50,633 nucleotides of DNA, taken from NCBI RefSeq assembly GCF_006345805.1, contig NW_021834469.1, positions 1-50,633 of the forward strand, in the 5' to 3' direction. The position numbers and the translations under genes were made by a program. Source of the DNA: Octopus sinensis. Lineage: Eukaryota. This document shows, piece after piece, positions 25,235-49,730 of the stretch (positions within the stretch are counted from its first letter, which is position 1; each line of letters opens with the position of its first letter). The notes under the pieces were generated by a model. That model saw only the letters and a program-made list of their open reading frames with translations, was not told where the DNA came from and ran no database searches.

Positions 25235-25400
25235 TACACGCATTTTTTCTCTCCTTGACTTTTTCTGTGTATTTTTCTGTCGAAGAGCGTAGGCTCGAAA
25301 CATAAAAGACTTTTTCTATTCCTGAGCGCTATACTAATATATTTGTTTGATTGTACTCCACCTGCCTTCGTCTTTTGTTTATTTTCGTAAACTTTCCCGT
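25235..25400 (+). mobile_element. Repeat family C (variant-hammerhead element) 3' end
   Basis: ttttctgtcgaagagcgtaggctcgaaacataaaagac...gagcgctatactaata...cttcgtcttttg...then (TA)n. Confidence 0.8.
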
Positions 25401-25432
25401 TATATATATATATATATATATATATATATATA

Positions 25433-25585
25433 GTTCAAATTTACAGAGAAACAAAACACGAAGACCGGTGTATGAACAACAAACAGATGTATTAGTTTAA
25501 TGCTCGCTCCTTTATGTTTCGAGCTTACGCTCTTCGGCAGAAATGAATACGAAGGAAAAAATCGAGAGATAATGAGAAAATAACA
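25433..25585 (-). mobile_element. Repeat family C 3' end, tail-to-tail with the previous copy
   Basis: cgaagaccggtgt...aacaaacagatgtattagtttaatgctcg...tttcgagcttacgctcttcggcag. Confidence 0.78.
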
Positions 25586-25976
25586 AATTTCAGCAGTCCA
25601 ACATGGCGGATAACTGGGGGAAAAAAAGATGTTGAATGAAAGAGATAAAAATGGTGCCCCCATTGAACTCAACTGCACAATCGTGTGTGTGTTTGTGAGA
25701 ATTGTTTGTGTGAGTGTGTATGTGTATATGTTTGAATGGGGTGAGTAAGTCTGTTGTATGATTGTGTTGTGTGTAGCAGTTGATGTGTACTTTTTTTTTT
25801 CCTGTGGTGTGTGCACGTGTGTATGTGTGTATGTATGTGTGTCTGTGACGGAATAATATGTATATGTATAGGGAATGTTTGTGGGCGACAGTTATTTCTG
25901 TCGATGCGAGTTGCGCGTGTGTGTATATTGTGTGTGTTCAGGTATTATGTGCTTGTGTGGGTGTGAGAGTGTGCAC

Positions 25977-26245
25977 GATGGTGATGAAGATGATGATAGT
26001 GATGGTGATGAGGACGATGATGATGGTGATATTGTTGATGATGGTGGTGGTGGTGATGATGATGGTAATGATGAGGACGATGATGCTGATGGTGGTGATA
26101 ACGACGATGACGATAATGATGATGATGATGATGATGGTGACGATAGTAATGATGATGGTTGTGGTGATGACGACGAGGACGATGATGATTATGGTTATGA
26201 GGATGATGATGACGATGATGATGATGATGGTGGTGTTGGTGGTGT
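25977..26245. repeat. (GAT)n-type degenerate trinucleotide tract
   Basis: Directly visible. Confidence 0.92.
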
Positions 26246-26254
26246 GCTTGTAAT

Positions 26255-26570
26255 AGCCATGACATTCACCCGGTGTGGGTTGATTTGGCATTGACCACTA
26301 TGTCTCTCACGAATGCTGACCACGTCTGTCGGTCGGGCGCAGTCGAGGTTGTAATGGATAAGCCATTCCCGATTAAACTGCCAAAGACCTTAGGCACAAA
26401 ACCCCCGATTTTCCTTCCACGTCCGCCTTTACCGTCGCCATCTACATCCTCAGTTGTCCTCCAGCTCGTTTGAGTCAAACCGGAAGGACGGGCGTTGAGT
26501 TCGGGTTGACCGCCGTCTTCCGAATGCATTACCCTGGTGGCGAACGGAAAGTATGTCCAAGCCACCTTAG
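26255..26570 (-). mobile_element. 3' end of an RTE-like LINE
   Basis: Minus strand gives RWLGHTFR, then ...APDRQTWSAFVRDIV...STHTG*, resembling the RWxGH and AxDRxxW motifs of RTE ORF C-termini. Confidence 0.65.
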
Positions 26571-26804
26571 ATGTCTCGTGTTAGAGCTTGTTGCAAAGAG
26601 TTGTTGAGGCAGTGTTATATTTTGCGGTTCAAAACGAAGTCCAATGGGCGAACATACACAATTTGACTTAGGCGGTAGTTGCCGACGACTTCGAGGTTTT
26701 CGTGATCATCAGCTTTCATTGACCAAGAGTAACATCTATATAGAAAGATGGTCCACATAACTGTTTGGATAATGATGATGCAAGCAATATTTTTTTATAT
26801 TTTT

Positions 26805-45779: not shown

Positions 45780-45945
45780 CACTTTGATCCTGCCTGCCTG
45801 AACTTTCTATTTCTTATTCCTTTATGTCATAGAGGTAGGCTCGAAACGTAAAATACTTTTCTATTTTCCATTTTTCTTAAAGTTAAACTAATACACCTCC
45901 TTGTTGTTCCTACACCTATCTTCGTCTTTCCTTTTCTGTAAACCT
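45780..45945 (+). mobile_element. Repeat family C, decayed 3' end
   Basis: gtaggctcgaaacgtaaaatacttttc...aaactaatacac...tcttcgtcttt. Confidence 0.65.
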
Positions 45946-46559
45946 GAACAAAACACCTCCACAAATACATATATACACACACACACATATATAAATATAC
46001 ATATATGTATGTATGTTTGTATTACAATATAATAAACATATAATACATATGCATCTTAAATGAGATATATATGCATACGCACACACACACACACACACAC
46101 ACACACACATATATATATATATATATACACATATATTTATTAAAAAAAAAATAGGGAAAAATAAGTATTCCAGGTTATCAGGATATTTACTATTTTACAC
46201 ATAACTAAACAGTATCATTTATAATATTATTACAAATTTGGGGGTTTACCAATATATATGTAGTAATACATATATACATTTATACACATACATGTATAAA
46301 TATATGTATATATATATACATATAATATATACATGCATAAATATGCCTATTCGTTTATATACGTATGTGTATTGGTTCGCTAGAATGCATGCGTTTAATG
46401 TATGTAGACATGGGAATGAGATGGATTTACTAAGATAATGCTCTACTAAAAGAAAAACTTTACTGAAACAGAAAAAAACAGAAAGTGGAATAAAATAATG
46501 GCAAGTAACAACAAACAAAACAAATAATAATAAAAAGCAACAGCAATAATCGCAACAGC

Positions 46560-47000
46560 AATAAAAATACCAATAATGATAATATATTAATATTAATAAT
46601 ACTAGTAGCTGTAATGATAATAATAATAGAAATAATAGGACTCGTGATGACGATGATATGATGATGAGGATGATGCTGATGCTGATGATAATAATAATAT
46701 AATATAATATAATAATAATAATAATAATAATAATAATAATAATAATAAAAATAATAGTAATAATAATAATAATAATAAAAATAATAATAATAATATAATA
46801 AAAATAATAATAATAATAATAATGATAATAATAATATAATAAAAATAATAATAAGAAAATAATAATAATGAATAAATAATACTAATTATAATAATGATAA
46901 TAAAATAATAATAATAAATAATAATATAATAATTAATAATAATAATATAAATAATAATAATAATAATAATAATAATAATAATACAATAATAATAATAATT
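46560..47000. repeat. (TAA)n degenerate tract
   Basis: Directly visible. Confidence 0.93.
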
Positions 47001-47889
47001 GCCACCGCAATAAAAGAAACCCCAATCACGAGTCAAAAAACATTGTTGTAGAACACTCGCGTAAAAAGGTGCGAGTAATTTGAAAATTACTGTTGTGATT
47101 GAAAGAGCTTTTTAGCAAATGGACGTATTCTTGATTTCTGCCACTTTAGAGATTGCCTGAGTTTCATCGCCTGTTATATGTAGGCTTTTTTCGTTTGTTT
47201 GTTTGTTTTTATTTCATGTATAATGCGTATGTGTATGTGTGCAGTTGTGTTTGCATTACATGAGGCATAGCGTGATCCTGTTGCAATGCCATGCAAGTGT
47301 TCACTTAACTATGAAATAAAACGTGGCGAAAGTACGTGAATAAAATGTTCAAATGTTTTGATTGATATTTTTCATCCTTTTTATTCTGTTTCTTATTTAT
47401 AGTTCCCACTAATTTCATTTATTTATGTATTATTTGTATTATTTTACTTTATAATTTGTTATGTTTTTCTTCAAAATTATAGTTATATATATATGTTATT
47501 TTTATAGGACTGTTGTTTTATGTTGGTGTTTGTTTTAGGTATTTCATGGGAAATGAATGGAAAGTTCACCGAATAATTTACTTGAAAAATAAGAAAAAAA
47601 TATTCTACATATGTGATTCTAACTATGATAACGAAGAATGATTTTTAGATGCCGTGAATAGTTAGAAGAATCGGTAAATCGGTAAATTGAACGAAAGAGG
47701 GATTTTTACGATATTTAGGCAGCAGTCATATCCTTATATCCCAAGTTCAAGCCATACCAACTTGAATAATCTCATTTGTTCTTCTGCGGTTGGAAAAATA
47801 ACGCCAAAGGAATTTTGGTGTGTTTTGTAAGAATTCCGGGACCTAGAGCGTGATTCTTTCTACCGGCACTAGACAGCTCAATGAATGGT

Positions 47890-48181
47890 AAAATCTGGAG
47901 GAATAGCATTCTGATGGAAGAACACATTTCTTCTGGAAGCCAAAGACGGTCGTTTTTCTTCCCGCCCTGACTGAAGACGCTGAAGCTGCTCGCAGTAGAT
48001 CTCGTTTGTTATCGTTTGGTTCGGGTTTAAGAGCTCAAAGCGGACTAAGCTTTTCATATCCCACCAAGCAGATAACAACACCTTATGTGGGTGGAATCCT
48101 TCTTTGCCCAGGGGTGCCTGCGTTTCTCCTTTCCCTACCCACTGTCTTTGAAGCTTGATATTCTTTTAGAGAACCCATTTC
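47890..48181 (-). mobile_element. Mariner transposase fragment (catalytic domain, pseudogenised)
   Basis: KWVL*KN...QW...HPHKVLLSAWWDMKSLVRFELLNPNQTITNEIYCEQLQRL...EKRPSLASRRNVFFHQNA matches mariner KWxxY, HxxKvML.vWWD, YCxQL and HxDNA motifs. Confidence 0.92.
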
Positions 48182-49538
48182 AATATTTAAAATATATATT
48201 TTTGAAATATTTTTTGAGGTGATTGGGTGTGCTAGATTCCCTTGTTCGAAAATATAAGGACACAGATCATGTTCTATAGCCAGCTGGAGTCTATGTCTCT
48301 TGGGACTAAATTACAGCAACATTAGTCCTCAACCAGGACTGCCATGTTATGTTGGCAAACAATCTTTACTTCGATAATATACTTGTTAGGAGAAAGGCCA
48401 GTAACAGAGACGCACAGACTACAAATGCACCGCATTTGCTTTTAGGTTTGAGTGAATGTTAAAATATAATATGTAAAACTAAAATAAAGAAAGAGACAAT
48501 CAAACAAACAGATTTACAGTTCACTTCCTACAGTTGCTTCCGACTTTCTATAAAAGTTTGTGGATGGGTCCTGGTGATTTTTTGGACCTTAATATAAACG
48601 GAAATGACAAATGTCCACTTTATGCATTCGCAATTGTATTATTAGGGGCTGGCATAGTGTACAACAGATATTTACTATCCTACAGTCATATTCAGGGACT
48701 TACATATGATTCACGCAGATGTCTCTTTGAAGTTGTGATTCAGTTATCAGCGATAGTGCACAGGTCTTCAAGTTGTGATTCTCTTATTGTTGAGAGTATG
48801 TAGTACTTGAAATTTTATGGTTGCTAGTATGCAATGGTGGAGTCTATGATTCTCTTAGTTTTCATAGAAAAAAATCACGATGTTAAATTATTTCCAGTCA
48901 AGTAGAACAACCACTACTTAAAAAGTCTTCTGTGATCAATACAAAAAATATAGAAGCAAATATTTAAATTATTTCTTAAAAATATTCGGATGCATTATAA
49001 GGCTTCGCTATCTTTAATTTCTTATCTGCTATTTAATTAGCAGTTTTCTGCGTTTCTCTTGGTTCTTTTCTAGAAAGTAATGGTAGAGAGGTGAGGATTA
49101 ATACTTTCGGATAAATTTTTAAGTTAATTTGTGGGTTAGTTGAATATTTTTGTTGTATCTATTTGAAAATATTCGTATGAGTCCATTTCGTTTCTTTTAT
49201 ATTTTGTTTGTGTGAATATATGAAATGATTTATGCGGTTTCTTATAAGTGTGTTTTTCTGAAGCCTTTGAGTTCAAGAGAATAGCAAGAAAATTATCTTT
49301 TTAACGGAAGAGTCAAATGTGATTGCTAAGCTTAATTTTTTTAAATAAGATTAAATTTTTCTTTAATTCTTTCGACTATTTTATACATACGTACACGCAT
49401 GCTTACACACACACACACAATATATATATATATAATACATTGACATATATACAGATATACATATATATATGAGGTACTATATAAATATATATATATACTA
49501 TATATATATATATATATATATATAGAGAGAGAGAGAGA

Positions 49539-49730
49539 GTTTACGAAAAAAACAAAAGACGAAGACAGGTGGTGTACAAAACAAACGGATGTATTAGTAT
49601 AACGCTCAGGAATAGAAAAAGATTTTTACGTTTCGAGCCTACACTCTTCTACAGAAAGGGAAACAGCAAAACAAGGAGAGAAACAAGGAGAGAGAAAAAT
49701 GTGTGTAGTGGCTAACGACCTATCATGGCG
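49539..49730 (-). mobile_element. Repeat family C 3' end abutting (TA)n(GA)n
   Basis: aaaagacgaagacaggtggtgt...gtattagtataacgctcagg...acgtttcgagcctacactcttctacag. Confidence 0.82.

Follow-up and report, generated by a model that had tools for sequence, protein, structure and literature searches.

A 50,633-nt stretch of Octopus sinensis DNA (NCBI RefSeq assembly GCF_006345805.1, contig NW_021834469.1, positions 1 to 50,633, called the window below) carries six dispersed copies of a repeat family with a hammerhead ribozyme core that lacks the conserved A at position 6. The residue at this position is U in five of the six copies, C in one and A in none. We favour, with a probability of about 0.5, the explanation that the copies are 5'-truncated 3' ends of a lineage of Penelope-like elements (PLEs), inserted into (TA)n tracts by target-primed reverse transcription, and that the U6 hammerhead is a cleavage-poor or dead passenger. 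The motif, its U6 or C6, the 3' end that the copies share at (TA)n, the 5' truncation and a high abundance in sequencing runs of three organisms (A, B and C) are directly observed. A PLE origin is likely, judging from the geometry, position and target of the motif. The window itself is microsatellite-rich animal DNA of about 35% GC with many interspersed repeats.

The hammerhead core and position 6

Apart from position 6, the five readable copies all retain the catalytic residues C3 U4 G5, G8 A9 and G12 A13 A14 together with the A15.1-U16.1 pair. Every catalytic position except 6 thereby fits the metazoan PLE consensus, i.e., a U-rich segment, CUGANGAH, G...C, GAAAN-palindrome-NU, H and an AU-rich segment (Cervera & de la Pena, 2014, PMC4209133). 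In the readable cores, G10.1-C11.1 closes a helix II of 4 bp, which is followed by GAAA and H17, and two to five helix I pairs are possible. The extra nucleotide separating position 9 from 10.1, the G10.1-C11.1 pair and H17 are found in 6/6 columns. The remaining copy is decayed and has no C3, G8 or A9. The variable core positions include the two free ones, N7 and H17.

The initial annotation of this DNA had reported that A6 is replaced in all five readable copies and that an extra A precedes helix II. Both statements are correct: position 6 is U in four of these copies and C in one, with U6 also in the decayed copy, and the extra A is present in 5/5. A loopless ACGU helix III, also part of that description, applies to four of the six copies, but the other two read ACAU, in which a CpG change has destroyed the palindrome. 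The hammerhead at 32858 used there as a comparator lies on the minus strand and is a member of a different family, and its helix II contains a G-A mismatch.

A geometry descriptor that allows any nucleotide at position 6 gave five matches in the window and none in each of 300 dinucleotide shuffles. An Rfam search gave no hammerhead match on copy 3, and it also missed the canonical comparator; for the window, only microsatellite and hairpin look-alikes were present among the 150 of 251 rows listed. Because the copies share one master, the loss of A6 is one event rather than five, and a single A6U change in the master copy would have preceded the expansion.

The family resembles the minimal type I hammerheads described in PMC4209133 in the extra nucleotide between 9 and 10.1, the G10.1-C11.1 pair, the loopless palindromic ACGU and the short helix I, as well as in the U-rich 5' and AU-rich 3' flanks and the occurrence mostly as dispersed single motifs. 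In contrast to those motifs, it has U or C at position 6, a helix II of just 4 bp and no open reading frame (ORF) that we could find. The core variant presented in PMC4209133 is U3-A8 and not U6. All 44 rows on one page of the supplement of that survey keep A6, yet the descriptor required A6, and the same applies to the hammerhead table of PMC8557442, where 34 of 34 rows read CUGA (A6) and the search required A6. Since A6 is missing, we do not class the family as a canonical minimal hammerhead.

A natural substitution at position 6 is known from the A6C hammerhead of phage Bcep176, whose activity is slow in Mg2+ and improves in Mn2+ (PMC3088659, PMC7151607). The octopus family differs from it in carrying U instead of C and in being a retroelement instead of a single phage locus; moreover, the low Mg2+ activity was measured for Bcep176, whereas it is predicted for the octopus motif. 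No natural U6 PLE hammerhead family was reported in the literature searched, which did not extend to the largest survey (Lunse, Weinberg & Breaker). The A6C variant is an already known natural form and the U6 family is newly met here, although it may have been published before.

Copies, 3' ends and abundance

The six copies lie where the initial annotation had placed them, as confirmed by reading and alignment. They are 66-87% identical to each other and each deviates from the majority sequence by 10-23%. Copy 1 (25235-25400, plus strand, about 165 nt) has its motif at 25272-25309, with C3 at 25277, CUGUCGA (U6), N17 at 25304 and helix III ACAU. Copy 2 (25433-25580, minus strand) has C3 at 25540, CUGCCGA (C6), N17 at 25513, ACAU and a short deletion past helix I. 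The two copies share the (TA)n tract at 25402-25432, toward which their 3' ends face, and are likely two separate insertions, since their sequences are only 73% alike. A one-event PLE inversion was considered for this tail-to-tail pair (25235-25580) and rejected on the basis of that identity and the inward 3' ends.

Copy 3 (29973-30140, minus strand; C3 at 30100, CUGUCGA, U6, N17 at 30073, ACGU) has its 3' end at (TA)n, and copy 6 (49535-49727, minus strand; C3 at 49654, CUGUAGA, U6, N17 at 49627, ACGU) at (CT)n(TA)n. The decayed copy 5 (45810-45945, plus strand; position 3 at 45824) reads AUGUCAU, with A3, A8 and U9 but still U6. Copy 4 is the longest (44320-44895, plus strand; C3 at 44766, CUGUAGA, U6 at 44769, N17 at 44793) and is flanked by two TA tracts. 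Its family membership was demonstrated for 44555-44890 and, by loose ends of aligned contigs, to about 44525; the stretch 44320-44525 would presumably belong to the family as well. The three reading frames of this copy are of low complexity and riddled with stops. Two features go beyond the initial annotation, namely that copy 4 (annotated at 44761) reaches in the 5' direction to at least 44571, and that a 5' fragment of the family at 42804-42971 (plus strand), 80% like 44571-44747, stops before the hammerhead. Three copies share a 5' start near one point, about 44705 on the copy 4 scale. With copies of at most about 575 nt, the 5' end of the family lies beyond those recovered.

The distance from N17 to the first (TA)4+ tract is 96, 80, 100, 101 and 102 nt in five of the six copies, which bears out the earlier estimate that the motif lies some 80-100 nt from a 3' end abutting TA repeats. 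No (TA)4+ tract is present within about 190 nt of N17 in the decayed copy. The family thus combines a hammerhead near the 3' end, 5' truncation, a (TA)n target and absence of poly(A), and by these sequence features it appears to work in the manner of a PLE 3' end that targets (TA)n. The hammerhead ancestry, 3' position and TA target proposed initially are therefore supported. No tandem units or pseudo-long terminal repeat (pLTR) arrangement occur in the window, only dispersed single copies and one opposite-strand pair, and no 3'-to-5' joint was prominent in aligned runs among the 15 of 28 joints listed. As neither an ORF nor a pLTR was found, we do not class the family as a PLE member.

Among known elements, the position of the motif about 100 nt from the 3' end and the (TA)n target recall the Hydra clade of PLEs, in which most listed families have their hammerhead about 90-180 nt from the 3' end and targets are (TA)n (Craig et al., 2021, PMC8557442). 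Unlike the octopus family, the Hydra motifs carry a real helix III and A6. The octopus Hydra-1_Obim motif and, compared by eye, the Naiad_Obim and Naiad_Ovul 3' ends given in that paper are unrelated in sequence, and eight motifs of the octopus family had no match in the part of its supplement text that was searched; assignment to the Hydra, Neptune or Naiad clade depends on the reverse transcriptase (RT) sequence. A further likeness is with animal non-LTR retrozymes, short non-coding elements with type I hammerheads that are derived from PLE pLTRs and include many monomers (bioRxiv 10.64898/2026.07.22.740005). In contrast to these tandem elements with canonical cores, the octopus copies are dispersed and 5'-truncated and share one common 3' end at (TA)n. 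In the genome of Octopus vulgaris, PLEs account for 6.83% in 190 families (PMC13282606).

In an index of sequencing runs, DNA runs with the family were listed for four organisms, whereas no RNA run was listed as containing it. Four of the 24 listed sequencing runs, with DNA of organisms A, B and C and RNA of C, were aligned to 44555-44896 at 80% likeness. This gave 13,955 (A), 14,941 (B) and 6,066 (C) contigs and 2,850 RNA reads from C. Depth across the 5' extension was at most about one tenth of that across the motif, as expected from 5' truncation, with the provisos that depth differs from copy number and that divergence from the reference also lowers depth in this region. Loose ends past 44890 read C(TA)n in 132 (A), 123 (B) and 78 (C) contigs. 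The RNA reads represent both strands alike, 92% of them continue into unrelated sequence, and they look like passive transcription inside host RNAs.

For position 6 (44769), no difference from copy 4 appears among the best 40 of 115 difference rows, the weakest of which has a share of about 47% in its best run; that the rows are ranked by share is deduced from this weakest row. U6 is likely the majority letter in all four runs, and an A6 minority below about 47% would be compatible with the data. A frequent C at position 7 is likewise not among the best 40 rows, which indicates the limit of that listing. The consensus of the loose ends of 20 contigs in run X4 also has U6. The core was initially described as fixed; this agrees with the absence of A6 from the window and the apparent U6 majority in the runs, but not with any stricter meaning of the word, given the compatible minority.

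At two other positions the majority differs from copy 4, i.e., C at 44783 (80-96%) and G at 44797 (89-93%), and with these letters helix II consists of four Watson-Crick pairs and helix I of CUUU/AAAG. The share of G at 44867 is 0.3% in A, 0.1% in B and 42% in C. Such differences in flank letters between organisms indicate that more than one master has spread. In 60 contigs of organism C, a different upstream sequence adjoins the motif at 44759; together with the 44867 variant, this points to lineage-specific subfamilies.

Cleavage, selection and rival explanations

According to the favoured explanation, the RNA that is copied would come from an autonomous PLE or from a non-autonomous element derived from the 3' end of one. 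Reverse transcription would start at a nicked (TA)n tract, from a fixed point about 100 nt past the hammerhead, and would mostly halt after 170-200 nt. One master would have gained A6U and then spread, apparently with no need for cleavage. That cleavage is dispensable is suggested by the expansion of the family, and that little of it occurs by bench data on A6 together with a predicted closed hairpin. In a saturation scan, changes in the CUGA region all gave low activity and were not rescued, except for the C3/G8 swap (PMC9901934, from an extract that did not include the A6U value itself). An A6C change in one ribozyme lowered the rate from 0.30 to 3.6e-6 per min at 0.3 mM Mg2+ (PMC7151607). 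Weak or absent cleavage is accordingly predicted for the U6 hammerhead. The study on the Anolis PLE points in the same direction: cleavage-dead hammerhead RNA was inserted normally by the purified PLE in vitro, and reverse transcription starts about 100 nt downstream in a separate stem-loop and does not require cleavage (PMC11167929).

Folding calculations gave a U6-A15.1 pair with a probability of 0.86 in copy 1 (25277) and 0.68 in copy 3 (30100), with G5 paired to C15.2. The predicted hairpin draws in G5 and the ACGU palindrome and is favoured in two of the four readable U6 copies. Changing U6 to A in silico in these two copies reduced the U6-A15.1 pairing to 0.00 and the G5-C15.2 pairing to 0.39 and 0.02. 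For copies 4 (44766) and 6 (49654), folding favoured neither the closed hairpin (P 0.01-0.02) nor helix II, and helix I had a predicted probability below 0.03 in all five readable copies. When two copies were folded together, ACGU was not predicted to pair with ACGU (P at most 0.011), a result to which we attach no weight since a 4-nt duplex is outside the reach of the model.

Several observations weigh against a passenger hammerhead of PLE origin. Core letters deviate from the majority at 12 of 179 places as compared to 78 of 524 downstream (Fisher P 0.004), and in five copies variable columns make up 4 of 21 constrained columns versus 44 of 97 downstream (P 0.03); for columns with shared variants the difference (1 of 21 versus 17 of 96, P 0.19) is not significant. 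This contrast between core and flank is partly inflated because the copies were chosen by their motif. Both changes in helix II lead to G-U, so that pairing is kept. Furthermore, normal PLE hammerheads cleave weakly in vitro and one needs its protein, for which reason what holds for A6 at the bench may not apply here; metazoan PLE hammerheads showed low activity even as dimers (PMC4209133). Finally, none of the 249 window frames (stop-to-stop, at least 45 aa) matched an RT or GIY-YIG Pfam family, so that a PLE origin is likely rather than shown.

One alternative is that the motif is a working core variant, in which slow U6 cleavage proceeds by dimer formation via ACGU or with help of protein or Mn2+, and in which the rest of the core was selected in the masters. 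In the family majority, all the remaining catalytic bases are kept along with G10.1-C11.1, H17 and ACGU, the commonest letters at 44783 and 44797 give helices I and II of 4 bp each, and the flank differences imply that several masters existed. One natural ribozyme with A6C retains slow activity and does well in Mn2+, and cleavage by the Anolis PLE hammerhead needs protein, with no RNA-seq ends at the site (PMC11167929). Against this, helix II is paired in 100% of cells (23/23) and helix I in 79% over six copies of one family, but none of the eight helix I/II pairs was altered on both sides. The covariation that the initial annotation called for is therefore not seen among these copies; inserted copies should decay freely, so covariation would be visible only between masters. 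The copies are dispersed singles with one adjacent pair in opposite orientation, folding predicts that U6 favours the closed hairpin, and A6 is present in all 44 + 34 published rows, although those searches required it. No pile-up of starts or ends was found in the 2,850 RNA reads, which is a weak test because standard cDNA libraries rarely show cleavage ends. We regard a working variant as possible though unlikely. The dimer form proposed initially finds no support in the six copies, which show zero compensatory changes, loss of the palindrome in two of six and a dispersed arrangement. A more specific version, in which a selected U6 hammerhead has its monomer shut by the A15.1 hairpin and opened for cleavage by a dimer or by its own protein, would make it part of one of the most abundant retroelements of the animal group; this version, too, seems unlikely to us.

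The other initial proposal was a dead ribozyme kept as a structure for RT recognition. In such a fold, a hairpin of U4-G16.2, G5-C15.2 and U6-A15.1 would stack on helix II and be bound by the RT/endonuclease. The hairpin is predicted in copies 1 and 3 in a U6-dependent manner, the motif region is better kept than its flanks, and the minimal insertion template of the Anolis PLE lies around and downstream of the hammerhead (PMC11167929). However, the hairpin is not predicted in copies 4 and 6, there is no covariation, no protein was found with the family, and Anolis RT starts about 100 nt downstream, in a separate stem-loop, without cleavage. With nothing that ties the motif to RT, we consider a retained fold distinctly unlikely. 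The simpler alternative to both initial proposals, i.e., a master that mutated once and a motif that rode along, fits at least as well.

We looked for U6 cores elsewhere. The exact family core had no match in metagenome contigs. A generic U6 pattern gave at least 116 metagenome matches (114 loci examined) and at least 121 viral matches (120 loci examined). Among the matches listed, helix II had four or more pairs in 9 of 116 and 6 of 121, and a helix I of three or more pairs in addition in 2 and 0, respectively; none of those listed resembled the octopus family beyond CA repeats, and none of the 45 reading frames from six chosen U6 loci matched RT or GIY-YIG. Locus L103 contains, at 262-328, two animal-type minimal hammerheads in inverted arrangement, of which one has A6 and the other U6, with a helix II much like that of the octopus family. 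U6 can therefore arise sporadically beside a canonical sister. Further lone U6 motifs resembling minimal hammerheads, with no RT nearby, are at L030 4001-4035, which sits amid NOD/LRR gene pieces, at L079 173-205 and in L097.

The L103 pair would fit the view that U6 is not fixed and that the U6 copies are an abundant offshoot, with A6 kept by an autonomous partner or sister subfamily. An A6 share below about 47% is compatible with the best 40 of 115 difference rows, and each run has 2-4 T>A places at 10% or more outside the listed rows. N17 and further positions at which the window copies differ can account for these places, A6 occurs in none of the six copies, and the X4 loose-end consensus has U6; we give this view little credence. 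We find it highly improbable that the family is no PLE derivative but a short interspersed nuclear element (SINE) or the 3' tail of another long interspersed nuclear element (LINE) that resembles a hammerhead by chance. The window indeed contains no PLE ORF or pLTR tandem, and Rfam recognized no hammerhead, although it missed the canonical comparator as well. Against chance stand the zero descriptor matches in 300 shuffles and the rarity of paired helices among the metagenome and viral matches listed. There is also no poly(A) tail, and ARAGORN found no tRNA gene, with the reservations that the 5' end of the family was not reached and that ARAGORN often misses SINE heads.

Neighbouring repeats and meaning of the U6 lineage

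The comparator hammerhead lies within a 74% inverted repeat at 32805-32983 (minus strand), with canonical CUGAUGA, C3 at 32899 and one G-A mismatch in helix II. By its sequence this appears to be a second, unrelated PLE-type family in a typical inverted arrangement. The sole strong Pfam match in the 249 window frames is a mariner-type transposase fragment at 47881-48165 (minus strand; PF01359, E 9.5e-19). A 92-aa frame at 40937-41212 (minus strand), with no Pfam match, resembles what we take to be the C-terminal endonuclease end of an R4/Dong-type LINE. An abundant SINE-like family, about 420 nt long and with a TA/TG tract in its interior, has its best copies at 18833-19252 and 41836-42255 (95% alike) and further copies at 6523-6830, 7527-7963, 9934-10168, 14517-15226 (an inverted pair), 20482-20834, 39612-39797 and 49925-50178. 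Another dispersed family, 80-90% alike, occupies 2248-2462, 3325-3570, 26786-27217, 33082-33324, 37930-38142 and 38663-38762, with partial tandems at 26786-27217 and 33082-33324. A 580-nt repeat at 6736-7311 and 20085-20655 occurs in opposite orientation, is 86% alike and contains an open frame of 105-158 aa with no Pfam match.

The role of the hammerhead in PLEs is an open question, and a high-copy U6 lineage offers a natural test of it. If the octopus hammerhead is dead, the family would lend genomic support to the in vitro finding that copying needs no cleavage. If it cleaves, the PLE core consensus would be too narrow and whole families would have been missed in published counts. Should a selected U6 hammerhead prove true, PLE hammerheads lacking A6 would escape all CUGANGA descriptors, and they might account for some of the PLEs reported without a hammerhead. 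Either outcome would be a refinement for specialists rather than a new system.

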